This document shows, piece after piece, positions 2,382 through 57,220 of a DNA stretch of 64,000 bases (the stretch's first letter is position 1; the number at the start of each line of letters is the position of its first letter). This DNA comes from a virus. Lineage: Duplodnaviria > Caudoviricetes. The position numbers and the translations under genes were made by a program. The stretch covers positions 32,001 through 96,000 of the IMG/VR virus record IMGVR_UViG_3300018405_000014; one strand, written 5' to 3'. Under the pieces are notes generated by a model. It was given only the letters and a program-made list of their open reading frames with translations. It did not search any database and had not been told where the DNA came from.

Positions 2382-3333
2382 GTACAGTTGTGTTGGCTGT
2401 ATGGTCGATAAGGAACTTGATCCCGGTCCGTTCGATGAAGATGGACCGGCACTGCTCTCCTTAGTCGATGAGATGAAGGACAGTGGATATGAGCTCAATG
2501 AGTTCACAGTTGGTCCGGTTGATGTTATCGCGTCGAGTGCTGGTACCGCTATCCTGGACCATCCATTGATACAGTCCTTGGCAGATCGATACTGTGGTAT
2601 GGTACTGCCGCTCGCCCTGCTGCAAGAGACAGGCCTTAAGGAACTGTGCGAGAAACTAAACTCCCTATTAAAAGGGAAGCGGTTGAAAGTTGCCACTCCC
2701 TTCCCCGTGAGAAGTATCCGAAATAGAAAACACATCGACCTAATCAAAGACCGGGTGCAGTATATCGTTGATCATCTACCAGATGTCAAGTTCGAGTTAC
2801 TCTACCTCACCGTGAATATGTCAGACGACCCGACTGAACACCTTAGCGATCAACTCGATAAGGAAATTCATGCGTTGGATTTCGGCGTCCGTAAACTGGT
2901 GGAATATGTCTTCCCCCATGCTCGTAAGGGTTTCGATGACCTTGTCAACAGACAGGCATTCTTAAGAGCGTTTACAGGCTTCACTGAGGTCATCCGAGAA
3001 AACCGGTCGCGGTACCTGATAAAGCCTTTGGATGATTCCCTGGAACTCACCTATAGGAACGGGTACCTATATTACACCCCAACACTAATTGAGAAGTTTC
3101 CTCTATTCTCAGATCAATATAGCATTGAACGACCATGGACACGTCATGGGGTCGAAGGACTGGAAGGGAATCTCTATATCGACGAACTTACTCGTCGAGT
3201 TGAGCACGTTACCTGCGGCGATTGTATCCATATCGATCGTTGCGCACGAGGTGACATCCATCTGATAATGACCCATTTGAATTACGACGAATGCCTGGTC
3301 GGGATGAAGAACGATTGGACTATGCCATTATGA
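2320..3333 (+). CDS. Divergent radical SAM protein with C-terminal SPASM-like Cys cluster
   Basis: LEILQGCKYSCVGC; C-terminal CGDCIHIDRC...C; clear paralogue of the two upstream genes. Confidence 0.75.
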   Translation: MSEMIPNRGFNITLEILQGCKYSCVGCMVDKELDPGPFDEDGPALLSLVDEMKDSGYELNEFTVGPVDVIASSAGTAILDHPLIQSLADRYCGMVLPLALLQETGLKELCEKLNSLLKGKRLKVATPFPVRSIRNRKHIDLIKDRVQYIVDHLPDVKFELLYLTVNMSDDPTEHLSDQLDKEIHALDFGVRKLVEYVFPHARKGFDDLVNRQAFLRAFTGFTEVIRENRSRYLIKPLDDSLELTYRNGYLYYTPTLIEKFPLFSDQYSIERPWTRHGVEGLEGNLYIDELTRRVEHVTCGDCIHIDRCARGDIHLIMTHLNYDECLVGMKNDWTMPL

Positions 3334-3758
3334 CTCCACCTTATAAAGATTTTCAGCGTGTCTACAATCAGTTAATTACGGATCATCCAGATGACTTCAG
3401 TAACATGGAGATCATTGAAGACGATGAGTTGGTGGACAATGCCCTGTCTTATTTCAAGCACGCTACGTTCCCCCTTATCTACCGTAGTAAGAGTTACGCG
3501 GTCGCCATTATCTACGCGCATAAACTCAATGAAATCTACGGTATCGATAAGTACGATATACTGAATGACCCTGATTTATTCCTGGGTCAGGACATGTATT
3601 TCGTACCGTATAGTCAAGACCCTGAGACATACGACCGAATCATGGAACGTCTAATGACCATCCCAAATTGGATTGAGTCAGGGTGGGCCCCTCAGACCGT
3701 TAAGTATTGTCTACTTGAATGTACTGAGGAAGGCATTGCTTCACTTAGCGAGGTGTAA
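3330..3758 (+). CDS. Hypothetical protein of the radical SAM operon
   Basis: ATGA-coupled ORF (MTPPYKDF...), 142 aa. Confidence 0.75.
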   Translation: MTPPYKDFQRVYNQLITDHPDDFSNMEIIEDDELVDNALSYFKHATFPLIYRSKSYAVAIIYAHKLNEIYGIDKYDILNDPDLFLGQDMYFVPYSQDPETYDRIMERLMTIPNWIESGWAPQTVKYCLLECTEEGIASLSEV

Positions 3759-7932: not shown

Positions 7933-8655
7933 ATGGCCACTAAAGAAACCTTGAAAGAACTCCAGCGCCAAATGAAGGCAGCTGGGATGTACAGCGGCGC
8001 TATCGATGGACTCTGGGGCCCGATCAGTCACGGAGCGTTTCTCAATGCCCGCCGCAAAGCGCTGCGGATGAGCCGACCGAGCGCTGAAGCCAATGGCATT
8101 GGTCCGTTGCTGTTCAGTTACTGTAAAGCCACTGCATGGTCCGCCAAGGTCTCTGAAGAATTCGTAGGGATGGTACATCAGATCTGTGACGACCTGCAGA
8201 TGGGTACCCAGGGCGCTGACCTACTGATGTCCTGCATGGCGTTCGAGACGGGCGAGACCTTCAGTCCCTCCATCAAGAACGGTGCTGGCGCACCTCACTA
8301 CGGTCTGATCCAGTTTGGCAGGGCTGCTGCAAAGGACGTAGGGACCACTGTAGAGGCGCTGGTGACCCTGACAGCCGAACAGCAGCTGATCTACGTCCAC
8401 AAGTTCTTCAAGCCGTATAAAGGCAAACTGAAGACCCTGAGTGACATTTACATGCGCATCCTCTACCCTGTGGCCGTTGGTAAGCCCGAAGACTATGTAT
8501 TATTCAGTGAAAAGAATACGAAGTCTAAGGCATATGTTCAAAACCGTGGTCTCGATGCTAACCGTGATGGGCTTATCACCAAAGCCGAAGCCGCTGCAAA
8601 AGTACAGGACAAGTTGCGTCGTGGTCTGCATCCCCGTAATCTGCGGGCCTGCTGA
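7933..8655 (+). CDS. Endolysin: peptidoglycan-binding domain + lysozyme-like/lytic transglycosylase domain
   Basis: LQRQMKAAGMYSGAIDGLWGPIS (PG-binding); CMAFETGETFSP...GLIQF; EF-hand-like DANRDGLITKAE. Confidence 0.85.
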   Translation: MATKETLKELQRQMKAAGMYSGAIDGLWGPISHGAFLNARRKALRMSRPSAEANGIGPLLFSYCKATAWSAKVSEEFVGMVHQICDDLQMGTQGADLLMSCMAFETGETFSPSIKNGAGAPHYGLIQFGRAAAKDVGTTVEALVTLTAEQQLIYVHKFFKPYKGKLKTLSDIYMRILYPVAVGKPEDYVLFSEKNTKSKAYVQNRGLDANRDGLITKAEAAAKVQDKLRRGLHPRNLRAC

Positions 8656-8656
8656 A

Positions 8657-8708
8657 ACAAAAAAAAGAAAGTGAAGCTAGAGGGAGCCCTAGGGCTCCCT
8701 CTTATGCC
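8657..8708. terminator. Bidirectional hairpin terminator between convergent genes
   Basis: A-tract then agagggagccc-ta-gggctccctct followed by tatgccg. Confidence 0.75.
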
Positions 8709-8796
8709 GGCTGTAGGTATTCTTACGACCGTTCTGATTTGGTAAGACGAGTAGCACGAATGCCACAGAAGTTGAAAGTGTCTGGCAGACCGTGAG

Positions 8797-8961
8797 TCAG
8801 ATGCCAAGGGCTGATTCCAGGTGCGCAATCTTACGTTCATACTCCAGAACCTCTGGACTGCGAACGCCATAGCGACGCATTGCCCGTTCGAGCAAGCGTA
8901 CGGTATGGTCCAGATCGGATTTGAGGGCGCGGTTGTCGATACCGAACAGTTTCTTAAACAT
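8797..8961 (-). CDS. Small hypothetical protein (54 aa, below ORF track cutoff)
   Basis: MFKKLFGIDNRALKSDLDHTVRLLERAMRRYG...ESALGI*; AAAGGAG SD. Confidence 0.65.
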   Translation of the reverse strand: MFKKLFGIDNRALKSDLDHTVRLLERAMRRYGVRSPEVLEYERKIAHLESALGI

Positions 8962-9003
8962 GGTGCGCCCTCCTTTGGGCCAGTAATAAATTAGGTGGTG
9001 AGA

Positions 9004-9504
9004 TTAACGGCGCTTGGATGAAAGCATGCCAAGGCCAATACCCAGCAGGGTACCCAGGGCCACTGAAGCATTTTCAGTGGCCCTGGTGTGAGTGGATGTG
9101 CCAAAGGTCCGCACCACAGTAGGTTCTACAGCATCCCACGGATCATCGACCGGTACTTCACGCACCTTGGGGTTAGCCTCAGTGCAGTTGTTTACCAGAC
9201 CGACGATATCGTTGTACCCGATGACGAAATGATCGACACCGAGGGCGATGCATGCTGCAGCTACATGATGCTTCTCAGTAGCGGACAACCCACTCCAGGG
9301 ATTGAAGTACAGGGTGTAGGTGCAACGGTATTCGATCTGCACGGACTTGAGTTCCAGCTGACCTTTGGTGGTCTTGTTGAAGACCACCTTGTTGGCTGTA
9401 CCGCGACCAAAGGTAACGACCACACGGGTGCTGGTCGATTCGACATTCGCAGTCTTGGAGAGAATGGTGGCGATAGCAGAAACATCGAGGGTATGAACAT
9501 TCAT
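9004..9504 (-). CDS. Hypothetical early protein with C-terminal hydrophobic anchor
   Basis: TAGGAG SD; ends VALGTLLGIGLGMLSSKRR. Confidence 0.75.
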   Translation of the reverse strand: MNVHTLDVSAIATILSKTANVESTSTRVVVTFGRGTANKVVFNKTTKGQLELKSVQIEYRCTYTLYFNPWSGLSATEKHHVAAACIALGVDHFVIGYNDIVGLVNNCTEANPKVREVPVDDPWDAVEPTVVRTFGTSTHTRATENASVALGTLLGIGLGMLSSKRR

Positions 9505-9535
9505 GGGTAGTTCTCCTAAGAACAGGGTAATGGTG

Positions 9536-9769
9536 TTAAATCAGTTGTTCGAGTAAGTGTCTGTGAAACTGCTCACGGTACGAGCGATCATCTCCTCCAG
9601 CCGCGGTGAGGCTGCGAATGAGACGCCCGTCGTCTAACCGGTAATACGGTTGTTTAAGGAACGTGGTCAGTGGCATGAATGTCATGGCTGACCGGGTTAC
9701 TGGGACCATCACCCCCGTCTCGGGGTGCGGCATGAAAAAACGGTACGTGTTAGGTACTGTGTCAGTCAT
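9536..9769 (-). CDS. Small hypothetical early protein
   Basis: AGGAG SD; directly downstream of early promoter copy. Confidence 0.65.
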   Translation of the reverse strand: MTDTVPNTYRFFMPHPETGVMVPVTRSAMTFMPLTTFLKQPYYRLDDGRLIRSLTAAGGDDRSYREQFHRHLLEQLI

Positions 9770-9802
9770 GGACCTGACTCCTGAGGGGATTGCTGGGGTA
9801 TA

Positions 9803-9838
9803 TCACCAGTACTATGTAGGGTTGAAAAAAGTTCGAAT
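9803..9838 (-). promoter_or_regulatory. Putative early (virion RNAP) promoter
   Basis: ATTCGA-N14-TACATAGT-ACTGGTGA; one of 7 copies with identical spacing. Confidence 0.7.
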
Positions 9839-9844
9839 CAAAAA

Positions 9845-10006
9845 ATAAAGGGATGATAGATCAGTTTATCAGGCACAGGCCTAACGACTGATCTATCAGA
9901 ATTTCGGTGAGACGGCATAATGGGTAGTCAGGGGCGATGGCCATTGCCGATCGCTCGCCTGATCCTACCCCGGAGGCACTGTGGTACCTATCCTCCCTAT
10001 AGCATA
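9845..10006 (-). ncRNA. Candidate structured small RNA (~160 nt)
   Basis: No ORF; three hairpins including a 12-bp perfect stem (9854-9865/9887-9898); upstream AAAATAAC-N11-TATG, downstream U-tract. Confidence 0.45.
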
Positions 10007-10025
10007 CTGCCGACCTAGTTATTTT
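10003..10025 (-). promoter_or_regulatory. Putative non-virion RNAP (middle/late) promoter
   Basis: AAAATAAC-N11-TATG, same architecture as 44276-44298. Confidence 0.45.
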
Positions 10026-10087
10026 TTACTATTTTGACTGAACTGACTTCGAAGGCACAACGAATTCTAACAAGAGAAGTGACCACT

Positions 10088-10123
10088 TCACCTAGGTGAT
10101 GTAGGGCTGACTTTAATTCGAAT
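10088..10123 (-). promoter_or_regulatory. Putative early promoter
   Basis: ATTCGA-N14-TACATCAC-CTAGGTGA. Confidence 0.7.
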
Positions 10124-10161
10124 CGAATCGGCATGGGGAGGCAGTGCCTCCCTCGTTATGT

Positions 10162-10434
10162 TCAGAACCCGTTCATCTTGGTCCATTCACGATCTGTCCA
10201 CTTGGGCGTATCAGGCGATACTGCTACCAAGCTAGACCGTTCAGCGATCCATTTGTACTTCGTGACCCCATCGTAGTCACCCGACTTGCAGAACATCTCG
10301 AACGCATCTGCAGGAGTGTACTCGTAGTCGTTCTTATACCACTCTCGCTTCTCCAGATACAACTCATCACCATCAATCACCTTGATGATAAAGGGGGTCT
10401 TCTGTAAATCCTCGAAGTAGATCGCTTGTTTCAT
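10162..10434 (-). CDS. Hypothetical protein
   Basis: 90-aa ORF, AGGA SD, followed by hairpin 10136-10153. Confidence 0.7.
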   Translation of the reverse strand: MKQAIYFEDLQKTPFIIKVIDGDELYLEKREWYKNDYEYTPADAFEMFCKSGDYDGVTKYKWIAERSSLVAVSPDTPKWTDREWTKMNGF

Positions 10435-10647
10435 TGTTATTGTCCTATCGTGATGACCATTACCAATTAACTAAGTTGACCGCCGATCCCACCCCAACAC
10501 CTTGTCCCTCATCGTCGTCGGACTGCGCTTAGGGACACCAGAGCCATTACCCCGGTCACACCAATATACAGGTTTAGTGTTTATTCACGCCCGACCTTAA
10601 CAAATAGTGTGAAAGATCTTTCTATTGACTTACTTCGGTGACTTACA

Positions 10648-30993: not shown

Positions 30994-32553
30994 ATGGACA
31001 TTAAGCTATTCCTTGTTAAATCCGTTTCGCTTCTGTACCTTGAAAGTCAGGTAGAGGGGTATAAATCCGGTAACGTCTCGTTAATTCGCGATCTATTGAC
31101 CAACCTCCAGCTTCCAGATGACATCAGCGAAATCGGCGAAGGGCGGAACGTCCTTGCCAATCTCCGCACCACAGTCCTGTGGATGCTTAATAACGGTGAT
31201 TCACAAAGATATGAACCGGATTCGCTTCTTCAGCGGCTTCGGATGAACACCCAGCATGACGATGTCACCTATAAAGCCCTTGAAAAGTCTATCCGTAAGT
31301 ACCCGGATGAGTCCGTCGTCCGCAAACATATCAATGACATTTCGCAGGAACTGCGCCGCTACAAAAACCGCGAGAAGCTGCACGAGATCATCAAGAAGGC
31401 GTCCTACACTCTGAGCTTCAAAGAAGCCGAAGTCGAGGATTGGGACGGCTTTATTCTCAACACCGCCCAAGACCTCTTGTCGGTGGACATGGAAACTGAA
31501 GACCGGGTCGACCCTGCCTTCATTACCAGCGTCAACTTCCAGGACAAGAGTTCGGTCACCGCGGCGTTCGAGGACATGAATAAGTCCTTGGGCACCGAAG
31601 GTATCATCCGCTGGCCAATCAAGGCCCTGAACCGTCTCATGGGCGTCCAGGCAGGGGGTAGACGCGGTGAGTTCGGTCTGATCAATGCCCTGCCTGGTAA
31701 CAATAAGTCAGGCACTATGCTTGACCTGTTTATCGGCACCTGCATTTTCAACGATCCTTTCCTGTTCGATCCTGAGAAGAAACCTTTGGCTCTGTTCTAT
31801 AGCACCGAAGATGACATCCCAGTGATCATCCAGAAGATCTACGTGATCCTGCGGCAGCGGGAAGTCGGTCACGCAGTCTCTGTCAAAGGTATGGACCCGC
31901 AAGCTGCTGCTGAGTACGTCATCGAGAAACTGCAAGCCCGTGGCTGGAACGTGGAGCTGCACCGTATCCGGGGTTCATCATTCTCCTATGCCAAGTACAT
32001 CAAGCACCTGGAGCAGTACAAGGCTAAAGGGTATGAGGTAGCAGTATCTTTCGTCGACTACCTGGCAATGTACAGCAAAGACGGCTGTGCACAAGGCTCG
32101 ACTGGTGACGACCTGCAAGACCTGTTCAAGCGTGTGCGTGAGTACACATCTGCTGAAAAGATCCTTCAGGTCACAGCACACCAGCTCTCGACCCAAGCCA
32201 AGGAAGAGAAGCGCATGAACCCCACCAAGTTCATTCGCGACATGCCGGGCGGCGGTTACTACCAGGGCTGTAAGAAGCTCGATACCGAGGTGGATTGGGA
32301 GTTCTACGTCAACAAGCAAGTGGTCAACAACGGCACGTACTTGGAATACATCTGGGGTAAACACCGCGGTGTGGTGGAGCCGACTCCAGAGGCGCACAAG
32401 TACTTCGTCATGCGGTATCTGGATAACCACATGTACGGCATCCCGTACGACCTGGATCTGGATGAAGACCTCAGTTACAAAGTCGTGGGTGGACGTCCTA
32501 ACTCCGAAGGCGGCGGAGCTACGTGGGACGACATTGAAAACATCGCAACATAA
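30994..32553 (+). CDS. dnaB: DnaB-like replicative helicase (phiKZ gp118-like)
   Basis: GGRRGE, ALPGNNKS (Walker A-like), STED, FVDYL, TAHQLS, GKHRG. Confidence 0.85.
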   Translation: MDIKLFLVKSVSLLYLESQVEGYKSGNVSLIRDLLTNLQLPDDISEIGEGRNVLANLRTTVLWMLNNGDSQRYEPDSLLQRLRMNTQHDDVTYKALEKSIRKYPDESVVRKHINDISQELRRYKNREKLHEIIKKASYTLSFKEAEVEDWDGFILNTAQDLLSVDMETEDRVDPAFITSVNFQDKSSVTAAFEDMNKSLGTEGIIRWPIKALNRLMGVQAGGRRGEFGLINALPGNNKSGTMLDLFIGTCIFNDPFLFDPEKKPLALFYSTEDDIPVIIQKIYVILRQREVGHAVSVKGMDPQAAAEYVIEKLQARGWNVELHRIRGSSFSYAKYIKHLEQYKAKGYEVAVSFVDYLAMYSKDGCAQGSTGDDLQDLFKRVREYTSAEKILQVTAHQLSTQAKEEKRMNPTKFIRDMPGGGYYQGCKKLDTEVDWEFYVNKQVVNNGTYLEYIWGKHRGVVEPTPEAHKYFVMRYLDNHMYGIPYDLDLDEDLSYKVVGGRPNSEGGGATWDDIENIAT

Positions 32554-33224: not shown

Positions 33225-33318
33225 GAGGTGACCTCAGGCAAAGAAAAAGAAAAGAAATAGGGAGAGGGGCCGAAGCCCCTCTCTGTTGTTAAAGACTAGG
33301 GCATAGCATATCCAGTCC

Positions 33319-33702
33319 CTAGAACCGCACCAGGTCAAACCCGATGATCTCAGAGGCCTTGGAGCTGATATGTGTCCTGATCCCAAGGACCATCCGATCG
33401 GCCTGATCCCGCTCGATCAGTTGCTTGATCAACTTGCTCTTGGGGCCATGAGGTTGAATGACACCCCGCAGTTGGCCAGTGGACTCATCATAATGAACAC
33501 TGACAATCTTTGCACAGACGTTCTTCTCGTTCACCGAGGTGTGACGGTCGGCGCGCTGCTGGATCGTCTGGTGACCAAAGAGTGATGGCGTACCGAACTC
33601 AACCAGTAGGCCACCCGCAACTGCTGACCGATGAAGTTTCTCGACAACCTCAGGAGACAGGTCTAGGGCAAATTCCCCCAGACGTACAGACGCTTCTTTC
33701 AT
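33319..33702 (-). CDS. Hypothetical protein
   Basis: Start MKEASV with GAGGAG SD; followed by hairpin + U-tract 33239-33285. Confidence 0.65.
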   Translation of the reverse strand: MKEASVRLGEFALDLSPEVVEKLHRSAVAGGLLVEFGTPSLFGHQTIQQRADRHTSVNEKNVCAKIVSVHYDESTGQLRGVIQPHGPKSKLIKQLIERDQADRMVLGIRTHISSKASEIIGFDLVRF

Positions 33703-33712
33703 GAGTCTCTCC

Positions 33713-43298: not shown

Positions 43299-43300
43299 CT

Positions 43301-43858
43301 TTACTGGAAATCTTCAATCGGTACGCCACGCACCTGACCCTCATCCGTTACCCGGATGATGCCTTCGTCTGTAATGCGTCGTACGGCTTCAGACCAGAAG
43401 ATGTGGATGGTCTTACGGCCGATGTAGATGTAGGATGTGTCTTTGGCAAAGATCTCGATCTCAAGGAACTGCGCCAGCGAATCGAAGGGGTGATCGATAT
43501 CCACATCGAATTCACCATCGACCAGGTTGAACTTACCGTCCAAGTAACGGATCAGGGCTTCCTTACCGTCAATCAGGGGTGCCTTGGCAGCGTCAATTTC
43601 AAAGACCGGGTAGTGAGTCTCGATGTCAGCACGGGCATAGTAAAGATCGACATCGCCTTTGACGGGGCCGTTAACCTTACCACTGACCTTAATGACAGTG
43701 TTGTCACCGTGTTCATCCGGTTCAATGGCACGTGGTACCCCCACATCCAGATCACGAGAACTCAAGCGGATGCGGTTGGTTCTGAAGATCAGGGCAAAGA
43801 GGTTCTCGAGCGCCGTTTTATCTGGGTCGAAGTGAAAGTCTTTCGTTTTACAAACCAT
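43301..43858 (-). CDS. Virion structural protein paralogue
   Basis: LYYARAD and SYIYIG motifs; C-terminal RITDEG repeats. Confidence 0.6.
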   Translation of the reverse strand: MVCKTKDFHFDPDKTALENLFALIFRTNRIRLSSRDLDVGVPRAIEPDEHGDNTVIKVSGKVNGPVKGDVDLYYARADIETHYPVFEIDAAKAPLIDGKEALIRYLDGKFNLVDGEFDVDIDHPFDSLAQFLEIEIFAKDTSYIYIGRKTIHIFWSEAVRRITDEGIIRVTDEGQVRGVPIEDFQ

Positions 43859-43890
43859 GACGACCTCTGATAGGCGTTAAAGGAGTGGGT

Positions 43891-44256
43891 TCATAGTATT
43901 TCACCCTTGTAATTCAGGTGGTACCCGTTGTCATCGGCTATCTGTCTCATGTATCGGATAAAGAGATGCCGGTGACAGAACTTACCTGCAGTGCAGTAAC
44001 AAGCCACAGCTAATGGACCCGTTCGCTCAAGGAAGCCCTGGAAGTCCTCAGGAGCCTCTCTAAAGCGCTCTGTAAGCTTCTTTAGGTAGATCTCGGTATA
44101 TTGGTCGTCTGTAACTTCACCGCGCTTGTATGCGTACAGGACGTCCTTGTAGGGAGCGAAGGGTTCAAAGCCTGATTTGACTGTGATGTCGAATAACTCA
44201 ATGCCTCTGTCGCGGGCTTTCCGCCACTGTGGTATCGCGATCGTATAAACGTCCAT
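43891..44256 (-). CDS. DUF488-like protein
   Basis: FAP, VACYCTAGKFCHRHL motif; GGAG SD. Confidence 0.6.
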   Translation of the reverse strand: MDVYTIAIPQWRKARDRGIELFDITVKSGFEPFAPYKDVLYAYKRGEVTDDQYTEIYLKKLTERFREAPEDFQGFLERTGPLAVACYCTAGKFCHRHLFIRYMRQIADDNGYHLNYKGEIL

Positions 44257-44275
44257 GCTCGTCTCCGAAGATTGT

Positions 44276-44298
44276 CATACCCTACCCTGGGTTATTTT
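44276..44298 (-). promoter_or_regulatory. Putative non-virion RNAP promoter
   Basis: AAAATAAC-N11-TATG, 20 nt upstream of the ATG. Confidence 0.45.
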
Positions 44299-44310
44299 GA
44301 AATCACAGCA

Positions 44311-44741
44311 AAACAAAAAAAGAAATAAAGTACTTCCCCCAGTGATCAGCCCAATCGTTCGAAAGGACGGATCACTGGAGGCTGCACTTTATGTCTGAAT
44401 CGGAGAAGGAGCGGACCCCAATCCAGACACCACAGGCAGGGAGAAAGCCGGAAAACCCCCCGACTGTGTTTCTTTGCAGCGGTGTGGAGCAACGACGCTC
44501 TACACACCATCGTTTACCACCTTCCCTTGGCCTGGAAGGCGGAACCACAATCACCTGAGCTATCACGACAAGTTCACTCAGGGCAACGAACAGGGACGTG
44601 AGGTGGGATTATCCCACCTCACGAAGGTGCACCACGACTAAGGGGGTAGTCAGGTACTGGGCTAGGGAAAAAGTACCCCAGCAGGCTCTACGCAGTGAAG
44701 CGCATCAGGTTGACCATGCTTTAAATGCATAGTCTGACATA
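44311..44741 (-). ncRNA. Candidate large structured ncRNA (~410 nt)
   Basis: ORF-free gap tiled by about 9 stems; G-U wobbles mostly favour minus strand; TATG at 44738-44741; terminal hairpin + U-tract at 44311-44392. Confidence 0.55.
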
Positions 44742-44771
44742 CTATACCGTAAAACAGTACAAGTATTTCAG

Positions 44772-46313
44772 TTACACCCCAAGGAGGATACCGAGTGAGA
44801 GAAGATTGGCTTGCCCATCACGCAGCGAGGCACCGATCCACGTCTGATAATGACGTGCCAATACTTCAGCAGCATGCGGGGTCATCAGGTCAGTGGAGAA
44901 CACGAAATCGACCGCTTGGTCGTTTTCAGCGATAGCCTGACCTTCGGGGGTGAGCATACCGTGATCGCCAAGGAAGCGAAGGATCTGTGTGTGGATACCA
45001 CGGACTTCGGCGGCTTGTTCGCCGTACGCTTCGGCATCCCAGACCATGGGTTCGACCAGAGATTCGTTGGAATTGGTTTCACCGTCTTCCTCCTCCTCTT
45101 CAAGGTCTTCGTCTTCTTCCTGCTCTTCGGATTCAGGCTCCTCTTCCTCTTCGACTTCGGTTTCAATAGCGTCTTCGTCGATCGTGTCGGCGTTGGCTAC
45201 TTCTTCCTCTTCGTTATCGAAGTCGTCACCTTCCTCTTCTTCCTCAGGGAGCTCTTCCTCCTCTTCGGGAAGCTCCTCTTCTTCGACTTCTTCAGGGAGT
45301 TCTTCTTCCTGCTCGTCGTCGAGGTCGGTTTCTTCCTCTTCTTCAGACGCCTCTTCAAGATCGGGGTCTTCTTCAAGAGGTGCTTCTTCCTCTTGTTCCT
45401 GATCATCCTCGTTCGGGACGAGTTCCATTTCGTCATCGGTCATGGAAGTGTCGTCCATAACATCGTTCTGCTCGTCGTCAGACTCGGACTCGTCGAGCGT
45501 TTCTTCTTGCTCTTCGTCGTCCTTGGGTTCAGCATCCGACTGGATGCTGTTGACAGAGGTGCCTTCCTCGAACTGGATACCGACCGGGTTGTCCTGGCGA
45601 TGCTTTTCGATCAGATCGCCCAGCTTGTCCGCTTCGTCGCTGCCGACAGCCTGAGCGTCTGCGCGAATGGCTTCAGCCTGCTCAAGCACAGACTCATGGG
45701 CCTTGGTCACCAACTGTTCGATGCGATCAACGGCATCGCTCATTTCACCGAGGACTTGCGTCTGTTCCAACGATTCCATCGACACACCGAGCTTGTCAGC
45801 ATACGAGCCAAAGCAGCGGGTGACGCTTTGAAGCAGAGGTGTGGCGGCCGCTACCGGGAAGGATTCCATCGATAGGACCGAGCGAATGGCACCAATGTAG
45901 TTACGATGGATAGCCAGCATCTCCATCGACAGGATCAGTTCTTCCTGCGAGGCGTGAGTGGCGCGTTCGCTGGTATGGAAAGCTACAGGTTCTTCTGCAT
46001 CGGCCTTGGCTTGCAGAGCGTCTTCGATCTGCTCGACTTCGGTCAGACGAGGGGTCAGGACATCCTGCATGATCAGCTCGACCCGGACCTGTGGTTCTTC
46101 AACACCGTCAACGGCTACGAGGTCCTGTTGGTGGTCTGCTTGCTCAAGAACATTCTCGGCCAACACCTGGAAGGCGGTTGCAGAGGCATCTTCCATCGAC
46201 GGACTGCTGAGCAGGGCACGCCCTACACTCATCAGGCTTTCCAGGCTGGTGCGGTAGTTCTGGGCTTCGTTAAGCATGACGGCTGCAGTCGGTTTGCTTG
46301 CGGTGTGGCTCAT
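44772..46313 (-). CDS. Highly acidic head/scaffold-like protein
   Basis: Five S(L/M)E sites in N-terminal half; ~160-residue Glu/Asp-rich tract. Confidence 0.7.
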   Translation of the reverse strand: MSHTASKPTAAVMLNEAQNYRTSLESLMSVGRALLSSPSMEDASATAFQVLAENVLEQADHQQDLVAVDGVEEPQVRVELIMQDVLTPRLTEVEQIEDALQAKADAEEPVAFHTSERATHASQEELILSMEMLAIHRNYIGAIRSVLSMESFPVAAATPLLQSVTRCFGSYADKLGVSMESLEQTQVLGEMSDAVDRIEQLVTKAHESVLEQAEAIRADAQAVGSDEADKLGDLIEKHRQDNPVGIQFEEGTSVNSIQSDAEPKDDEEQEETLDESESDDEQNDVMDDTSMTDDEMELVPNEDDQEQEEEAPLEEDPDLEEASEEEEETDLDDEQEEELPEEVEEEELPEEEEELPEEEEEGDDFDNEEEEVANADTIDEDAIETEVEEEEEPESEEQEEDEDLEEEEEDGETNSNESLVEPMVWDAEAYGEQAAEVRGIHTQILRFLGDHGMLTPEGQAIAENDQAVDFVFSTDLMTPHAAEVLARHYQTWIGASLRDGQANLLSLGILLGV

Positions 46314-46362
46314 TCTATGAATCCTCTTCCATTATACTCCTAGTTAAAAGGAATATTTTCAA

Positions 46363-49300
46363 ATGTACGCCAATTTCTCGCGTCTGTTAGGGTTGATCTC
46401 CGTGAAGGAGACCGGCTCTCACATTATAGTCAATGGAATACCTGGGCTCAGGTTCTCTAAAGACGTATACAATCACTGGAAAACTAGCAAGTTGAACAAC
46501 AACATGTTCACTGCTATTTCGCGAAGTGGCGTAAAGTTTCCCAAGTTCTACGCCATCGAAGTTCTGTACATGTTGGATCAACTGATCCAATCCCGTCGGA
46601 CGTATGTGGGTCGGCGGACGCTACAGCGTGTACGCGATGAGTTGATTGCTGGCACGTGGCTGCGCAACATAGGTCTGGGTGATTTCACCTCCAGGCTTAA
46701 CATGTCGGCACTGAAGGACTTGACAGTCACATTATTTCCCCATCAAATTAACTTTTTACAGCATTACGACAGAGCTACGTTTGAATACTCGCTCAATGGA
46801 ATGTTGATGGACGCGGCAGCAGGATCGGGTAAGGCTCAGCCTCTTGACGCTAAAATCAAGGTACCTGGTGGTTGGGCCACTATGGGTGACATGCGCGTGG
46901 GGAGTCAGGTGATTGCGCCGGACGGTACGACCGTCAATGTGTCGGGTGTTTATCCTCAAGGTGTAAAAGACATCTATGAAATTGAGTTCGTCGATGGGCG
47001 GAAAACCAGGGCGTGTGGTGAGCATCTCTGGGAATGTCACGACGGAAGGCAGAGTAATGTTTCCCGTCAGTGGGATGTCCGATCGACGTTGCGTATGAAA
47101 GAGATTTTAGAATCTCGCGGTGGTAATCGACTGTACGTTCCTCTCATCACTCCAGATGAAGGTACAGAGGTACAATACCCACTTGACCCGTATGTGCTGG
47201 GTGCGTTATTGGGCGACGGTGGTCTTCGATACCATGTTGCCTTTTGTACTCCAGATGCCGAGGTACTGGAGAATGTCCGTAATGCCTTACCAGACACCGT
47301 GGAATTCAAACGTATAACTGAAATCGACTACAGCATTGTGGGTGTTGAGCGCGGCGACAATGTACTGAGACGGATAGTTAGAGAACTTGGATTATTTGGT
47401 AAGTATTCTCACGAAAAACATATTCCTAGTGAGTATCTCCAGGGTTCCCGGACACAACGCCTGAGTCTTCTTCAAGGCCTCATGGACACCGATGGAACTT
47501 CGGATCAGCAAGGGACCGTCTCATTTTGCTCCAGTAGTAAGCAATTGGCGGAAGGTGTGCAGTATCTGGTTCGCAGTCTGGGTGGTATCGCCAGGATCGC
47601 TGTTCGGAAACCGACTTATACTTACAACGGCGAGACGCGAAATGGCCGCCCTGCATATCAAGTCAACATTCGTCACTCCAAACCATCCGAACTGTTCAGG
47701 TTAAAACGCAAACAGGAACGTTGTAAAGACGATGGACAGTATGCTGCAACGCTCAAACTACGTGTTAAGTCAATCAAGCTCGTCGGTCAGGAAGAGGCGC
47801 AATGTATCAGGGTGGATCATCCGAAACACCTGTACATCACCGATGACTTCATTGTCACCCATAACACGATCTCGCAATACGCCACGGCCCATTGCTTGGG
47901 GGCTGACACCTCAGTGCTCGTTGTACCGAAGAACTCTGTGTTTGACGTCTGGGTCAAAACCATCAAGGTACTCTTCAAGCAGACGCCAGAGTACTGGCAC
48001 AGCCTGAGTGGAGAGGAATTGACTCTGGGCAAGAAGTACTACATCGTCCACTACGATTATCTGGAGAAGTTCGTGGCCTTCGTCGGGGCTAACAAAGGCA
48101 GCTTCGGCAAGGTCTACGTAGGGATCGACGAATCGCACAACTTCAACGAGCAGTCCAACCGGACCAACCTGCTGATCCAGCTCTGCCAGACCCTCAAGGC
48201 TCGAGATGTGATCCATGCATCGGGTACGCCATTCAAGGCCATGGGTTCTGAAGCCATCACCCTGCTGGCGACGATCTGTAATGACTTCACCCCTGAAGTA
48301 CAAGGGTCCTTCCGTAAGATCTTTGGCAAGGAGGCTAAGCGGGCGATTGAGATCTTGGCTAATCGAATCGGTATTGTCTCCTTCAAGGTGGTGAAAGCTG
48401 ACATCGAGACGCCGGGTGTGGATTACCATGAGATCAAGGTACCGATGAACAACTCATCGGAATATACCTTGACCAGTGTCCGCGAAAAGATGAGCAAGTT
48501 TATCGATGAGCGTTTGGCCTTCTACCGAAAGGGGATGCCGGAGTATGAAAAACTCTACGCGACGTGCATGGACCTTCACGGGCAGACTGTAAAGGGCGGA
48601 ATGGCCTCCGCAGCGTTCTCCGAATACCGACGTGGCGTGGCTCAACTTCGCAAGGGGTATGATCCAGTTACCATGAAGGATCTGGTGATGTACTGTAACC
48701 GGTACGAGCTGAAGACCATTGTTCCCTCGCTACCTGAACGGTACCGCAAACCGTTCTTGAATGTCCGTGCCATCATCAAGTACGTTGACCTCAAGGTCAT
48801 GGGTGAGGCGTTATCTCAGGTATTGGGGCGCCTGCGCATCCAGTGTCACTTGGACATGCTACCCAACATGCCCTTGGATGAGATCATCGACAACGCGACC
48901 ACCAAAACGGTGATCTTCACCAGTTACGTGGAAGTGGTCAAGGAGCTTGAGAGCCTGCTGACGAAGGCGGGGTATAAACCCATGCTGGTGTACGGGGAGA
49001 CCAACAAGGACTTGCCGAACATCGTCAAGCGGTTTGAGAATGACGACGACATCAACCCTCTGGTGGCAACCTTCAAGTCCCTGTCGACAGCTGTACCGTT
49101 GACCATGGCCAACACAGTGGTGTTCACCAATGCCCCGTTCCGTGATTACGAACGGACGCAGACCATTGCCCGTGTTGACCGAATTGGACAGAAACATCGC
49201 TGCCATGTATACGAGACGTATCTCGATACCGGTGCAGAGCCGAACATCTCGACGCGCTCTAAGGACATCATGGCGTGGAGTAAATCTCAAGTCGAGGCTA

Positions 49301-50205
49301 TCCTCGGGGTCAGTGCTCCGGATGATCTGGAGACTTCGTTGGAGTCTTTGGTGGAGAACCCTAGTGCGACCTTGCCCGATGCTGAAGGTTTCATGGCACG
49401 TTTGCAACAAGAGCTGCCAATCGACGTGGTCGAGGATGATGTGAGTATGGAGGGTCTATTTAGCAATGCCCCATCCGCAAACATCCATAAGACGGAAGCC
49501 GTTCTGGCAAAATTGAAGGAGACGTATCTTAATTCGTCTTGGAGGTCAAAGCAGAAGTTCAAGGAAGGCAAGCTTCGGCTTGAAAACAGTCACCTGACCG
49601 AGATCGCCAGAGTCAATCAGACCAAGCAGGTCATGGACAAATGGGTGGATGCAGTCAGAACCCGTAGTTCGAGCCTGGCCAGAACAGTCAGTGACTTCTC
49701 CAAGGGCTGGAAAGACCCCAGTAAGGTAGAGCGTTGGGCAGACGGAATCGAGACTGACACTCTGCACGGGGCTCGCAGTAAGCAGACAGTCACTGTCATC
49801 CGGCTGGCCGACAAAATACCGACGATGAATGGTTACATCATCGGTGGTGTCGGCACTACGACTTATCTGAGCACCGATAAAGAGGTTCTTGACGCTGCTA
49901 AGCGGCTCGAAGCTCTGCTGGATCACGATGTCGTTTGGATTGACGAACTGCTCGATAAGGAGTTTTCTCACAAGAGATTTGGAGAGTTCCATCGTGGGGC
50001 CGACCACACTACCTTGCTCGATGAAATCTCCAGCAGCGATCTCTCACATGCCGAGGATGCCATAATGGTATACAGGGCGATCAAAAACACCATGAAGAAG
50101 GAAGAAGCTGACTTCGTTAACTCACCTGAGGCCAAGTTGTTTAAGGACCATCACAGTGCGATGTACAAAGCGCTGTGGGCACAGCTAACGAAATCCACCA
50201 AATAA
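46363..50205 (+). CDS. SF2/SNF2-like helicase with intein and C-terminal head-protein-like extension
   Basis: AAGSGK|T Walker A, IDESH, ASGTP, KTVIFTSY, QTIARVDRIGQ. Confidence 0.88.
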   Translation: MYANFSRLLGLISVKETGSHIIVNGIPGLRFSKDVYNHWKTSKLNNNMFTAISRSGVKFPKFYAIEVLYMLDQLIQSRRTYVGRRTLQRVRDELIAGTWLRNIGLGDFTSRLNMSALKDLTVTLFPHQINFLQHYDRATFEYSLNGMLMDAAAGSGKAQPLDAKIKVPGGWATMGDMRVGSQVIAPDGTTVNVSGVYPQGVKDIYEIEFVDGRKTRACGEHLWECHDGRQSNVSRQWDVRSTLRMKEILESRGGNRLYVPLITPDEGTEVQYPLDPYVLGALLGDGGLRYHVAFCTPDAEVLENVRNALPDTVEFKRITEIDYSIVGVERGDNVLRRIVRELGLFGKYSHEKHIPSEYLQGSRTQRLSLLQGLMDTDGTSDQQGTVSFCSSSKQLAEGVQYLVRSLGGIARIAVRKPTYTYNGETRNGRPAYQVNIRHSKPSELFRLKRKQERCKDDGQYAATLKLRVKSIKLVGQEEAQCIRVDHPKHLYITDDFIVTHNTISQYATAHCLGADTSVLVVPKNSVFDVWVKTIKVLFKQTPEYWHSLSGEELTLGKKYYIVHYDYLEKFVAFVGANKGSFGKVYVGIDESHNFNEQSNRTNLLIQLCQTLKARDVIHASGTPFKAMGSEAITLLATICNDFTPEVQGSFRKIFGKEAKRAIEILANRIGIVSFKVVKADIETPGVDYHEIKVPMNNSSEYTLTSVREKMSKFIDERLAFYRKGMPEYEKLYATCMDLHGQTVKGGMASAAFSEYRRGVAQLRKGYDPVTMKDLVMYCNRYELKTIVPSLPERYRKPFLNVRAIIKYVDLKVMGEALSQVLGRLRIQCHLDMLPNMPLDEIIDNATTKTVIFTSYVEVVKELESLLTKAGYKPMLVYGETNKDLPNIVKRFENDDDINPLVATFKSLSTAVPLTMANTVVFTNAPFRDYERTQTIARVDRIGQKHRCHVYETYLDTGAEPNISTRSKDIMAWSKSQVEAILGVSAPDDLETSLESLVENPSATLPDAEGFMARLQQELPIDVVEDDVSMEGLFSNAPSANIHKTEAVLAKLKETYLNSSWRSKQKFKEGKLRLENSHLTEIARVNQTKQVMDKWVDAVRTRSSSLARTVSDFSKGWKDPSKVERWADGIETDTLHGARSKQTVTVIRLADKIPTMNGYIIGGVGTTTYLSTDKEVLDAAKRLEALLDHDVVWIDELLDKEFSHKRFGEFHRGADHTTLLDEISSSDLSHAEDAIMVYRAIKNTMKKEEADFVNSPEAKLFKDHHSAMYKALWAQLTKSTK
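46834..47865 (+). mobile_element. Class 3 intein (344 aa) with LAGLIDADG homing endonuclease
   Basis: GK|AQPLDAKI...ACGEHLW...LGALLGDG...LQGLMDTDG...AQCIRV...IVTHN|T; Ala1 and W-C-T triplet. Confidence 0.9.
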
Positions 50206-51320: not shown

Positions 51321-51370
51321 AGAAAAAAGAAACAGCTAAGAGAGGGAGCCTAGGCTCCCTCTCTATGTCG
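51319..51370. terminator. Bidirectional terminator, near-identical to 55859-55911
   Basis: aaagaaaaaagaaacagctaagagagggagc-ctag-gctccctctctatg. Confidence 0.8.
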
Positions 51371-51377
51371 TCACCGG

Positions 51378-51674
51378 TTATTCGAGCGATTCGAGGAGAT
51401 CCTCAAGGCTCTCGAAATCGGTGTATCGTGAGGCTACATCTACTTCGATGGTGATCTCCTCACCATCACCACTGACGACATAATCGGCAGCGCAGAGGCT
51501 GGCGATCAAGCGCTTTCGGGTAATGGTCTTCAGGCGCTCGAGCCCCATGCGGTTCTTCAGTTCGCTATCGGACATGGTCAAGTTGATGGTACCGAAATTA
51601 CCGACCGCGATGTTAGCCTTGACACGGGCTTCGATGGCTTCGACGATTGTTTTAGCAATGGCTTTATACGGCAT
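51378..51674 (-). CDS. Hypothetical early protein
   Basis: AAGGAG SD, 98 aa. Confidence 0.7.
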   Translation of the reverse strand: MPYKAIAKTIVEAIEARVKANIAVGNFGTINLTMSDSELKNRMGLERLKTITRKRLIASLCAADYVVSGDGEEITIEVDVASRYTDFESLEDLLESLE

Positions 51675-51690
51675 GGTGTTGCTCCTTGTA

Positions 51691-51978
51691 TCAGTAAAAG
51701 ATGCCCGATTCGATCAGGCGGTTTCTAATCTGGCTTATCCAGCGTTCACTGGGTTTCCGCCGACCTTTCACAACCGCTACTTTTTCACGCAGTTCAGAGT
51801 CGGCCATTACCAGACTAGCGGGATAATAGCCACAGCCCGATTCGGGCGAGCCGTGACGGACAAGCAGGCCTGTAAGGTCGCCATCTACCTCGTCTGGATC
51901 GATGGCGACATAGCTGATCCCAACCTCCCCTTCCAACTTGCGGAAAAGAAGGCCATTGGGTTCATGGTAGATGTTCAT
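51691..51978 (-). CDS. Hypothetical early protein
   Basis: ATGA-coupled to upstream gene. Confidence 0.65.
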   Translation of the reverse strand: MNIYHEPNGLLFRKLEGEVGISYVAIDPDEVDGDLTGLLVRHGSPESGCGYYPASLVMADSELREKVAVVKGRRKPSERWISQIRNRLIESGIFY

Positions 51979-54894: not shown

Positions 54895-55321
54895 AGGTGT
54901 AGGCCCCATCGTTAAAACTGTCGAGGATGTATGGCATGTGCATGTCCAGGAGATGGGACATGCATTTACCCGCTCGGTAGATGAGCGTGATTGTATTGTT
55001 CTTGTGTAACACTGCGGTCAGTAAAAGGTGTTCGCGGTAAGGTTCGAGTAATGTGTTGGTGGCCTTAAAGGTATCCTCATCGAAGGCATAGGGTCGAGTG
55101 CCTTCACCCACCAGGTGCCAGTGGTCATAGAGGTGATCGTCTTTGAACACAACCGACCAGGTAGAATCGTAGAGGGCCATTCGACCCTTCGTGTATTTAC
55201 GTTCATCGTCGGGGTTGAGGTCTATGAAATCACCCCTGATCACCTCGCTATCATGTAGGTAATCATCCACCTCACGGGAATCCGGGCACATGCCTTCTCG
55301 GAAGACTAGCAGCTTTTTCAT
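54791..55321 (-). CDS. Hypothetical protein
   Basis: 176-aa ORF; 3' end overlaps next gene. Confidence 0.6.
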   Translation of the reverse strand: MKKLLVFREGMCPDSREVDDYLHDSEVIRGDFIDLNPDDERKYTKGRMALYDSTWSVVFKDDHLYDHWHLVGEGTRPYAFDEDTFKATNTLLEPYREHLLLTAVLHKNNTITLIYRAGKCMSHLLDMHMPYILDSFNDGAYTYVIPSADVASAALSDSKAKADQDAEKDDKSHRPK

Positions 55322-55388
55322 TGGGGTGATGTCCGTTTCTGTTCTACAGGATCGGTGAGCTTTTTCTTATTTAACAAGGGAATTCACC

Positions 55389-56597: not shown

Positions 56598-56651
56598 GGT
56601 GTGTTCTCCTTAAGAACAGGGGGCACGTAGCCCCCTTATTGGGTAGGGTAT

Positions 56652-56687
56652 TCATCGCTATCATGTATCGTTGAAAAAAAGTCGAAT
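56652..56687 (-). promoter_or_regulatory. Putative early promoter
   Basis: ATTCGA-N14-TACATGAT-AGCGATGA. Confidence 0.7.
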
Positions 56688-56723
56688 CGCATAAAGAGCC
56701 TGGGGAACTCCCCAGGCTCTATG

Positions 56724-57017
56724 TCAGGACTTGGCGCAGGCCATTTTGTAGAACTCATCGTTGATCTCAATGAGTTGGTCGACACTGGTTGCGGTATGCA
56801 ACGCATCAATGAACATGCCGCACGAAGCCTGGAAGTGGGTCATCAGGTACTTGGCTGATTCAAACTCATCGCCACTGTAGGCTGCTGGCGCAGCATTCTT
56901 GATCAGTCTGAGGAAGGTATTGAGGTGTGACGCTGTGATGCGGGCTGCCACCCAGCGCTCCCGGTTATCCAGATGTCCTGGTGCCACCCGATTAGCCGGC
57001 GTAATAGAAACTATCAT
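56724..57017 (-). CDS. Hypothetical protein
   Basis: 97 aa, TAAGG SD, followed by hairpin 56690-56724. Confidence 0.65.
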   Translation of the reverse strand: MIVSITPANRVAPGHLDNRERWVAARITASHLNTFLRLIKNAAPAAYSGDEFESAKYLMTHFQASCGMFIDALHTATSVDQLIEINDEFYKMACAKS

Positions 57018-57220
57018 GGAGCATTACCTTAGAAGAAATAAGACACAGGATTACAGTGAAACAAATTGACTAAACATACATGGTGGTGTATTCGTTTTCT
57101 TTGACGGATTAAAGCATGTACTCGCGAATGACCGTTATCTGTTCGACCTCTATATAGTGCCCCATCGTAACCGTGGGAGACGCGGCATAAAACGGCGCCC
57201 CGCAGGGCGCCGAATTACGG

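Follow-up and report, generated by a model that had tools for sequence, protein, structure and literature searches.

A predicted family of large structured non-coding RNA in jumbo phages related to Pseudomonas phage pPa_SNUABM_DT01

The stretch of DNA analysed here, called the window throughout, comprises 64,000 nucleotides (nt) of an uncultured jumbo phage, positions 32,001 to 96,000 of the IMG/VR record IMGVR_UViG_3300018405_000014 (a 116.7-kb viral record rated 44% complete), and contains at 44257-44771 a gap of 515 base pairs (bp) without any long open reading frame (ORF), flanked by two minus-strand genes. Comparison of this gap with its counterparts in other phages indicates that it encodes, on the minus strand, a member of a genuine and previously undescribed family of large structured RNA found in a jumbo-phage clade. 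A preliminary description, made from the letters of the window, had proposed that the minus strand encodes at this place a stand-alone RNA of ~410 nt with many stems, and that core proposal is supported by the absence of the RNA from Rfam, by 21 covarying homologues, by the boundaries of conservation and by a separate TATG motif ahead of the next gene.

The family consists of 21 distinct homologues that are 43-99% identical, namely the window copy, a copy in Pseudomonas phage pPa_SNUABM_DT01 (DT01) and copies in 19 uncultured jumbo-phage contigs; no other member is more than 57% identical to the window copy. A search with the DUF488 protein encoded downstream of the gap led to five IMG/VR jumbo-phage contigs, each with a gap of 506-568 bp at the same place. 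DT01 is the sole close named phage, and its equivalent gap of 513 bp is unannotated (homologous region MW735835 262318-262770). When IMG/VR was scanned with a first conserved motif of the RNA all ten matches proved true, and a second motif returned 13 family members with one chance match from IMG/VR and 10 family members with 13 chance matches from metagenomes (the 14 chance matches are loci L017-L020, L026, L029, L030, L033-L038 and L041). Left out of the count are two family members that end at the edge of their locus (L021 and L024), five loci that are the same contigs as others already included (L007, L009, L011, L013 and L040, the same as L003, L004, L002, L001 and L005 respectively) and two that are identical to included ones (L023 to L003 and L039 to L010).

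Pairing is retained across the family through extensive change of sequence. Collection of homologues and a test for covariation had been named beforehand among the checks of the proposed RNA, with a lack of covariation to count against it, and what emerges from the 21 homologues is heavy covariation. Of the 74 pairs that RNAalifold predicts for 13 full-length sequences, 36 show compensatory double changes. The core, aligned in all 21 sequences (alignment A4), has 27 pairs in five helices with 98.8% of cells paired and double changes at 17 pairs; none of 500 column shuffles reaches any of five measures, and when the partners are slid by 1-3 columns just 26-60% of cells are paired. Over the variable 5' domain MAFFT followed by RNAalifold gives 7 pairs only, and single-sequence folds were used there instead.

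The folding energy speaks for structure and also for the strand. The minus strand of the gap has a minimum free energy (MFE) of -225 kcal/mol versus -164.3 +/- 6.5 in 100 dinucleotide shuffles (z -9.32, with no shuffle as good), and the plus strand has a z of -4.65; because the minus strand folds so much better relative to its shuffles, the RNA is placed on the minus strand, the strand that the preliminary description had picked from its G-U pairs. A fold no better than dinucleotide shuffles had been foreseen there as evidence to the contrary, and the fold obtained lies far beyond them. In a scan of the whole window with 400-nt segments at 319 positions on both strands, with MFE corrected for guanine plus cytosine (GC) content, minus-strand 44201-44600 gives the lowest corrected MFE (z -3.46), the top of 638 strand-segments in the 64 kb. 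All 21 homologues fold better than their own shuffles (20 shuffles each), 19 of them with z at or below -4.6, the remaining two being L005 (-3.6) and L043 (-2.5). A 381-nt contig (depth ~8) from sequencing run X22 represents a near-identical relative with five substitutions within the RNA, all at paired bases; on the minus strand four change G-C to G-U and one changes G-U to A-U with the pairs kept, and four of the five would disrupt pairs on the plus strand. These substitutions appear to agree, weakly but consistently, with an RNA on the minus strand.

The predicted RNA and its parts, listed in 5' to 3' order of the RNA, are as follows.

44309-44738, minus strand: candidate non-coding RNA, ~423 nt assuming a 3' end within the U-tract (MFE, homologues, covariation and no conserved ORF)
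44737-44746, minus strand: 5' boundary motif TATAGTATGT, which contains TATG at 44741-44738 and has its predicted start at the G at 44738
44712-44734, minus strand: Ha, 5' hairpin GACUAUGC/GCAUGGUC in the MFE fold of the window copy, equivalent to the conserved GGAC-CUGUUCUUUMACA region of relatives
44689-44704, minus strand: Hb, small hairpin UGCGC-UUCACU-GCGUA, paired in 20-21 of 21 sequences at each of four consensus pairs
44661-44682, minus strand: Hc, variable hairpin (ctggg/cccag) from single-sequence folds
44632-44654, minus strand: Hd, hairpin (gacta/tagtc) with the C-rich loop CCCCCU, a hairpin in 21 of 21
44597-44623, minus strand: He, perfect 12-bp hairpin CGUGAGGUGGGA/UCCCACCUCACG, with a stable hairpin of differing sequence here in 21 of 21
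44583-44590, minus strand: 5' strand of the junction helix, UUCGUUGC, of which UCGUU pairs with AAACGA at 44510-44515
44554-44582, minus strand: Hf, hairpin CCUGAG/CUCAGG with loop UGAACUUGUCGUGAUAG (44560-44576), all seven stem pairs compensatory and 100% of cells paired
44517-44542, minus strand: Hg, hairpin CCGCCUUCC/GGGAAGGUGG, outer stem with 5 of 6 pairs compensatory
44508-44517, minus strand: junction strand GUAAACGAUG, the 3' strand of the junction helix, with GTAAACG invariant in 21 of 21
44481-44508, minus strand: Hh, hairpin GGUGUG...CACACC that encloses a GAGC/GCUC stem and has a conserved CUCC, with compensatory changes at 5 of 7 pairs and pairing in 95.8% of cells
44476-44480, minus strand: GCUGC, 5' strand of the long-range helix, pairing with GCAGC at 44381-44385
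44431-44468, minus strand: Hi, hairpin CACAG...CUGUG with apical loop UUCCGGCUU (44445-44453), from single-sequence folds
44392-44429, minus strand: Hj, hairpin UGUCUG...CAGACA with loop CCGCUCCUUCU (44404-44414), in 21 of 21 with unrelated outer stems
44327-44390, minus strand: Hk, long terminal hairpin resembling an intrinsic terminator, 19 pairs of which 12 are compensatory
44309-44326, minus strand: U-rich tract AUUUCUUUUUUUGUUUUG 3' of Hk, with a U-rich run after Hk in most members

Measured from the G of TATG to ~28 nt past the terminal hairpin, the homologues are 412-480 nt long. Nine local stems had been pointed out in the gap before any comparison was made, and all nine are found in place as hairpins Hc to Hk of the minus-strand fold. 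For the 5' end two foldings were obtained, in that relatives have at the position of Ha a local stem closed by GGAC with a variable partner, and RNAalifold with 13 sequences instead pairs the 5' end with a CUCCUC loop. That longer-range helix is regarded as unsupported, both of its strands being invariant and the window copy and L042 changing one side without an evident match, and the local stem is an equally good reading. Hb is nearly invariant and so shows little covariation. Hc, Hd and He form a series of three hairpins kept in constant order in all 21 homologues with stem sequences that are unrelated, as judged by single-sequence folds, and the loop region of Hd has a run of at least four C in 16 of the 21 (all save L003, L005, L028, L042 and L043, counted by eye).

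The junction helix has five pairs, 100% paired in the 21 sequences with four one-sided wobble changes, and the 15-nt core of the adjoining Hf loop, GAACUYRUCGUGAUA, is kept in all members with letters invariant save at two positions. Hg has in most relatives an inner stem and a CGCUACC loop whose columns are at least 90% conserved, both of them missing from the window copy. Between Hh and Hk there are two hairpins (Hi and Hj) in 19 of the 21 homologues and one in L005 and L043. It is Hi that these two are without, and 18 of the 21 have Hi with unrelated stems and a YCCGGCUR loop, the loop being different in L042. The Hj loop CCRCUCCU is kept in every member and its CTCCT is invariant. In Hk the basal stem is AAAGUGC/GUACUUU and the upper stem CCUCCAGUGAUC/GAUCACUGGGGG, with AG/AA as internal loop, and 95.7% of the cells of the hairpin are paired, a value that none of 500 shuffles attains (slid controls 34-55% paired). 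Taken over the family the invariant set is the Hf loop, GUAAACGAUG and UUYGUUGC of the junction helix, CCRCUCCU, YCCGGCUR, CGCUACC and the Hk 5' strand GUGCAGCCUCCAG.

A long-range pairing of gctgca with tgcagc, in competition with the lowest part of the terminal hairpin, had also been suggested, and such a helix is present and does overlap the base of Hk, with modest support from covariation. The pairs between GCUGC and GCAGC are kept in 102 of 105 cells (97.1%) across the 21 homologues, with one mismatch each in L001, L002 and L004, and two of the five pairs show double changes, in four sequences (C-G to U-A in L028, and C-G to U-A at the other end in L005, L042 and L043). None of 500 shuffles reaches the covariation score of the helix and 22 reach its count of covarying pairs. 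Within Hk the helix takes up bases of two basal pairs, of the internal loop and of the first upper pair, and it may either alternate with the terminator base or form a pseudoknot-like or tertiary contact, the signal being real but thin.

Sequence conservation starts abruptly at TATAGTATGT (44746-44737), a 10-mer that occurs once in the window, and DNA 5' of the motif is not conserved; in each of the 21 homologues the invariant motif (TATAGTATG) stands equally far 5' of the core, and its TATG is kept in 20 of the 21, L003 having TGTG. According to the accessible text of PMC4666361, the late promoters that the non-virion polymerase uses in phiKZ share the consensus TATG, and transcription starts at its G; DT01 carries both polymerase sets, as stated in that of PMC8541153. 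Given the invariant TATG and the phiKZ late-promoter rule, the 5' end is placed by analogy at 44738, where transcription would start. At the other end Hk and the U-tract together look like an intrinsic terminator; a simple terminator scan, whose limits on loop and length exclude long interrupted hairpins, passed over Hk. L005 and L043 have an additional hairpin between Hk and the U-rich run. The TATG at the minus-strand 5' end (44741-44738), the U-tract at the 3' end (44326-44309) and a promoter-like motif belonging to the downstream gene had all been noticed at the outset, and all are there; the last of these is the following.

44276-44279, minus strand: TATG, promoter-like, 20 nt 5' of the DUF488 ATG with GGAG in between

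Relatives have TATAG or TATG at the equivalent site 5' of DUF488. Two further observations concern the edges of the RNA. Most relatives, L003 included, have UGCCGU (UGCUGU in the window) 3' of the U-tract, which may belong to the RNA 3' end or to a promoter element of the next gene. At 44747-44771 (minus strand) and at the same place in relatives there is a short hairpin with an A-rich loop just 5' of the TATAG motif, the stem of which differs among relatives (CCGG/CCGG, GGC/GCC, ACGC/GCGU, CCGU/ACGG); it could be the terminator of the upstream gene or a part of the promoter.

The preliminary description had assigned the RNA to no known family, and this agrees with a search of Rfam 15 (4227 models, including RNase P, transfer-messenger RNA (tmRNA), 6S, group I and II introns, ROOL, GOLLD, OLE, phage pRNA and riboswitches), which gives no match at the gathering score over the whole window. 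With an expectation value (E) of up to 10 allowed over 44100-44950 the matches are mir-4504 (24.3 versus 104 bits), mir-250 (20.7 versus 58) and sR14 (12 versus 38); the first two lie on the terminal hairpin and the third, a C/D-box snoRNA, lies outside the gap, and all are dismissed as sub-threshold, plain-hairpin or chance matches. ARAGORN finds no transfer RNA (tRNA) or tmRNA gene in the window. A protein-coding or degraded coding sequence is rejected as well, since the location, frame and strand of ORFs of at least 30 amino acids (aa) vary from one of the 21 sequences to another; in none of them is any frame free of stops, and the substitutions in stems are compensatory. A degraded coding sequence and a known RNA family were the two identities that had been named as fatal to the proposal, and what was found is no common ORF and no Rfam family. 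Each of the flanking ORFs is a whole gene of its own (DUF488 matches its profile over the full length, and upstream the encoded acidic protein ends at a conserved C-terminus) and hence the gap is not an intron, nor did any group I or group II intron model match. An rRNA mimic or antisense RNA is not supported either, seven of the 21 members having 7-18 9-mers in common with the Escherichia coli rrnH operon as compared with a shuffled mean of ~7.3-8.0 and a shuffled maximum of 17-24; L005 in the sense direction has 18, slightly above its own shuffled maximum of 17, with E. coli rather than the true host as reference.

A distant-mode blastn search of the window gap against 50,697 phage records gave no match and the DT01 copy matched only itself, the family being too diverged for BLAST. 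A covariance model of the conserved core (R1, 132 positions) gives the window copy 104.6 bits and the DT01 copy 119.7 bits. With E of up to 1 allowed, the same model has no match in PA1C (phiKZ-like), Viktualia, pEa_SNUABM_11, Moabite or Noxifer, and the first four of these phages have no gap upstream of DUF488; Noxifer is given as the nearest relative of DT01 in the accessible text of PMC8541153. Motif scanning of 596 Gb of bacterial and archaeal genomes (one per prokaryotic species) yielded six matches, all rated chance, two of which R1 lists at E up to 1 with at most 18 bits versus the 105-120 bits of true members. As far as the collections show, the family would be confined to DT01-like jumbo phages. 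No description of the RNA was found in literature on non-coding RNAs of jumbo phages, phiKZ or Chimalliviridae or on pPa_SNUABM_DT01, and in the accessible text of the DT01 paper (PMC8541153) the words 'non-coding' and 'intergenic' do not occur.

The RNA keeps constant company. Its two neighbours in the window are these.

44772-46313, minus strand: upstream gene for a 513-aa protein with a long D/E-rich middle, directly 5' of the RNA in 21 of 21 loci
43891-44256, minus strand: downstream gene for a DUF488-N3a protein of 121 aa (Pfam PF22751, E 4.5e-6; phrog_2450, E 1.9e-31)

The order of acidic-protein gene, RNA, usually DUF488 and then a DUF7941 virion gene is kept in all 21 loci, with DUF488 directly 3' of the RNA in 19. 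At the other two the RNA still adjoins the acidic-protein gene and is parted from DUF488 by a gene for a 336-aa repeat protein (L028) or by a 156-aa ORF (L042). The L028 insert (L028 752-1762, plus strand) has about six repeats of a 'YEYDPxTNTW...NNKMY.YGG' unit and looks Kelch-like by eye, the L042 insert lies at L042 11314-11784 (minus strand), and each seems to bring its own TATG-like motif. Neither Pfam nor PHROG has a family for the 513-aa acidic protein, and the ESM Atlas gives no usable match to it; conserved N- and C-terminal domains of ~250 and ~90 aa flank its D/E-rich middle of ~180 aa. Its gene is carried by DT01 alone among the 50,697 phage records, and the protein, which occurs solely where the RNA does (DT01 and its uncultured relatives), may therefore be a partner of the RNA.

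The wider neighbourhood is of a phiKZ-like jumbo-phage type, with DUF7941 virion proteins, a tail-fibre-like protein, an intein-bearing SNF2 helicase and ribonucleotide reductase. The helicase (46363-50205, plus strand) is a 1280-aa SNF2-type protein with an intein-like insert containing LAGLIDADG/Hom_end domains at residues ~354-440, between helicase motifs. Elsewhere in the window the second-strongest structure signal is at 8640-9300 (plus strand, 661 nt, z -5.4 versus 20 shuffles); it overlaps minus-strand ORFs and a strong GC hairpin at ~8679-8702 and may represent convergent terminators. Six stretches of 480-1140 bp have no ORF of at least 100 aa by a crude gene call (2748-3672, 9505-10647, 33225-33712, 51321-51974, 54910-55388 and 56598-57220) and may contain small genes or further non-coding elements.

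As to what the RNA is for, the reading favoured here, and one that is probably if narrowly correct, is of a discrete late-made RNA of ~420 nt that would have its own transcript and act in trans through its frozen loops. Transcription would start at the G of the invariant TATG, taken as a late-promoter word of the non-virion RNA polymerase of the phage, and would end at the long conserved hairpin Hk and the following U-tract. The product would be a stable RNA folding into about eleven hairpins around a multi-helix junction closed by UCGUU/AAACGA. In such an RNA the stems would be free to drift as long as pairing is kept, with GAACUYRUCGUGAUA, CCRCUCCU, YCCGGCUR, GUAAACGAUG and GUGCAGCCUCCAG frozen, and these single-stranded elements might dock a protein or another RNA. 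The CCRCUCCU loop is complementary to a Shine-Dalgarno-like AGGAG and so might offer one such contact, and a side function in termination or antitermination is conceivable. The roles named at the outset (scaffold, protein sponge, anti-defence decoy and packaging RNA) would all be compatible with the sequence data. In a bolder form, which is to be thought unlikely, the RNA would represent a new class of large functional RNA of nucleus-forming jumbo phages, a late ribonucleoprotein (RNP) subunit or a ribozyme-like or self-assembling RNA working with the acidic protein. The GAACUYRUCGUGAUA, CCRCUCCU and CCGGCU loops would then be contact surfaces, and the role might lie in virion assembly or packaging or in control of translation from behind the phage nucleus.

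Several observations weigh against a discrete trans-acting RNA with a late promoter. TATG is a common word, found 269 times in the window, and its enrichment is weak, at 81 versus 43.1 expected in crudely defined intergenic DNA (TATAG 17 versus 7.2), both about twofold and confounded by AT-rich composition and uncalled small genes. The window copy deviates at the 5' end, with GUCAGA where the family has GUAGGA, and is without the CGCUACC loop of Hg; L003 is without the U-tract. No transcript has been seen, as none of the 24 sequencing runs that match 43300-46400 is recorded as RNA, and four runs labelled RNA-Seq are rated probably DNA, with contigs that cover scattered pieces of genes and gap alike. 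Nor did complements of the loops within the window point to a convincing target, the Hf loop having six matches with at most three mismatches (the own loop of the RNA gene included) versus 3.05 expected, and the CUCC loop of Hj eight versus 3.9. Finally, competition of GCUGC:GCAGC with the terminator base, for which there is some covariation, could reflect a cis-acting switch just as readily as a tertiary contact.

The last point leads to the alternative of a cis-acting leader or attenuator, possible if doubtful, in which a large sensor domain would be followed either by a stop at Hk and the U-tract or by read-through into DUF488 and the virion genes. Capture of GCAGC by GCUGC would undo the terminator base, and the balance would be set by a bound protein, RNA or small molecule, a switch that can be entertained just as tentatively. 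Such a design would account for a long-range helix that shares bases with two basal pairs and one upper pair of Hk and changes in a compensatory manner in 4 of the 21 sequences, for an Hk 5' strand far more conserved than a plain terminator requires (as expected if it has two pairing partners) and for a next gene that is always on the same strand; in 201phi2-1, by the accessible text of PMC11512511, 8 of 11 small RNAs come from premature termination in 5' untranslated regions (UTRs). However the covariation of the switch helix is thin, given the 22 of 500 shuffles that equal its count of covarying pairs, and at 420 nt, with about eleven hairpins, the RNA greatly exceeds known attenuators in size. 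The DNA that separates the terminator from the next gene has moreover a TATG or TATAG with a ribosome-binding site, and the downstream gene differs at two of the 21 loci (L028 and L042), so that the RNA seems independent of the downstream gene. DUF488 is present in 207 phage records, and in the four distant ones that were inspected (PA1C, Viktualia, pEa_SNUABM_11 and Moabite) there is neither a comparable gap upstream of it nor the RNA.

If the RNA belongs rather with the gene on its other side, it would be the structured 3' UTR of the messenger RNA of the acidic 513-aa protein, or a fragment processed from the 3' end of that messenger RNA, stabilising or localising the message or being cut off from it. 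Adjacency to this gene in every locus, even where the RNA is parted from DUF488, and the equally narrow distribution of gene and RNA (DT01 alone has either among the phage records) are in keeping with this, as is a small covarying hairpin seen by eye in several members between the stop codon and the TATAG motif. Yet conservation begins abruptly at the 5' boundary motif and the preceding 30-60 nt after the stop codon are not conserved, TATG is a promoter word in the phage group, and in several relatives a hairpin stands right after the upstream stop codon, ahead of the motif, and could be the terminator of that gene; the 3' UTR reading is held to be quite improbable. Of similarly low probability is a ribozyme or an RNA subunit of an RNP with a complexity like that of RNase P RNA, ROOL, GOLLD or phi29 pRNA, serving for example in packaging or in the phage nucleus. 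The size of ~420 nt, the multi-helix junction, several loops and junction strands that stay invariant although the stems covary freely, the late-promoter word in a neighbourhood of virion genes and a self-complementary CCGG in the Hi loop would suit such an RNA, but no Rfam ribozyme or RNP RNA matches even at E up to 10, the RNA is restricted to one small clade while the tested relatives PA1C (phiKZ-like) and Noxifer do without it, and some parts are dispensable (Hi in L005 and L043, the CGCUACC loop in the window copy).

The discrete late RNA favoured above would matter in several ways. It is a 21-member family with textbook covariation that is absent from Rfam, and since one member resides in a cultured and sequenced Pseudomonas aeruginosa phage, pPa_SNUABM_DT01, where its region of MW735835 is annotated as empty, experiments are feasible at once. 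A large RNA with a late-promoter word would be an addition to the very short list of non-coding transcripts in nucleus-forming jumbo phages, and the dual-pairing terminator strand may serve as a test case for RNA-based control of a non-canonical phage RNA polymerase.

Phage and bacterial non-coding RNAs of comparable size and complexity are rare, those known including RNase P, tmRNA, group I and II introns, OLE, ROOL and GOLLD, and such large RNAs are ribozymes, RNP cores or unusual assemblies. ROOL, GOLLD, OLE and HEARO are large structured non-coding RNAs of unknown function, roughly 580-800 nt long and often located in phages or prophages. The RNA of the gap resembles ROOL and GOLLD in being large and phage-borne, with many covarying helices and conserved loops; it differs from them in being smaller, in having a fixed gene neighbourhood in one jumbo-phage clade where ROOL and GOLLD lie beside tRNAs, and in matching no Rfam model. 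A likeness of another kind is to RNAIII of Staphylococcus aureus, a multi-hairpin regulator of ~514 nt whose C-rich loops pair with Shine-Dalgarno regions. Both are strings of hairpins ending in a terminator, and CCRCUCCU and the frequent CCCCC loops are complementary to ribosome-binding sites of the AGGAG and GGGGG types; in contrast to RNAIII the gap RNA has no homology to it and no encoded peptide or target found in the window, and the resemblance is in design only.

Two published sets of phage RNAs bear on the family more directly, each known here from the accessible text of its paper. The IMG/VR survey of Fremin and Bhatt (2023) lists 8,495 candidate structured RNAs of 29-151 bases (PMC10690425), and has in common with the present work the intergenic IMG/VR source and the logic of covariation; single hairpins of the gap RNA could be among its candidates, from which the whole RNA of ~420 nt is set apart by its length. 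The transcriptome of 201phi2-1 contains 11 small RNAs of less than 250 nt (sRNA001-011), and phiKZ has a small RNA upstream of gp182 (PMC11512511). With a predicted length of ~423 nt the gap RNA falls outside the limit of 250 nt used in that paper, and in contrast to the simple hairpins described there it has about eleven helices and a junction and is predicted from sequence signals; in PA1C and the four other jumbo phages it has no match, either by sequence or with R1. One small RNA of the 201phi2-1/phiKZ type is reported to be conserved across genera by position and fold (PMC11512511), and in its setting the gap RNA is much like these small RNAs, being encoded by what would be a nucleus-forming jumbo phage, bounded by promoter-like and nearby terminator-like signals and placed just 5' of a gene on the same strand.

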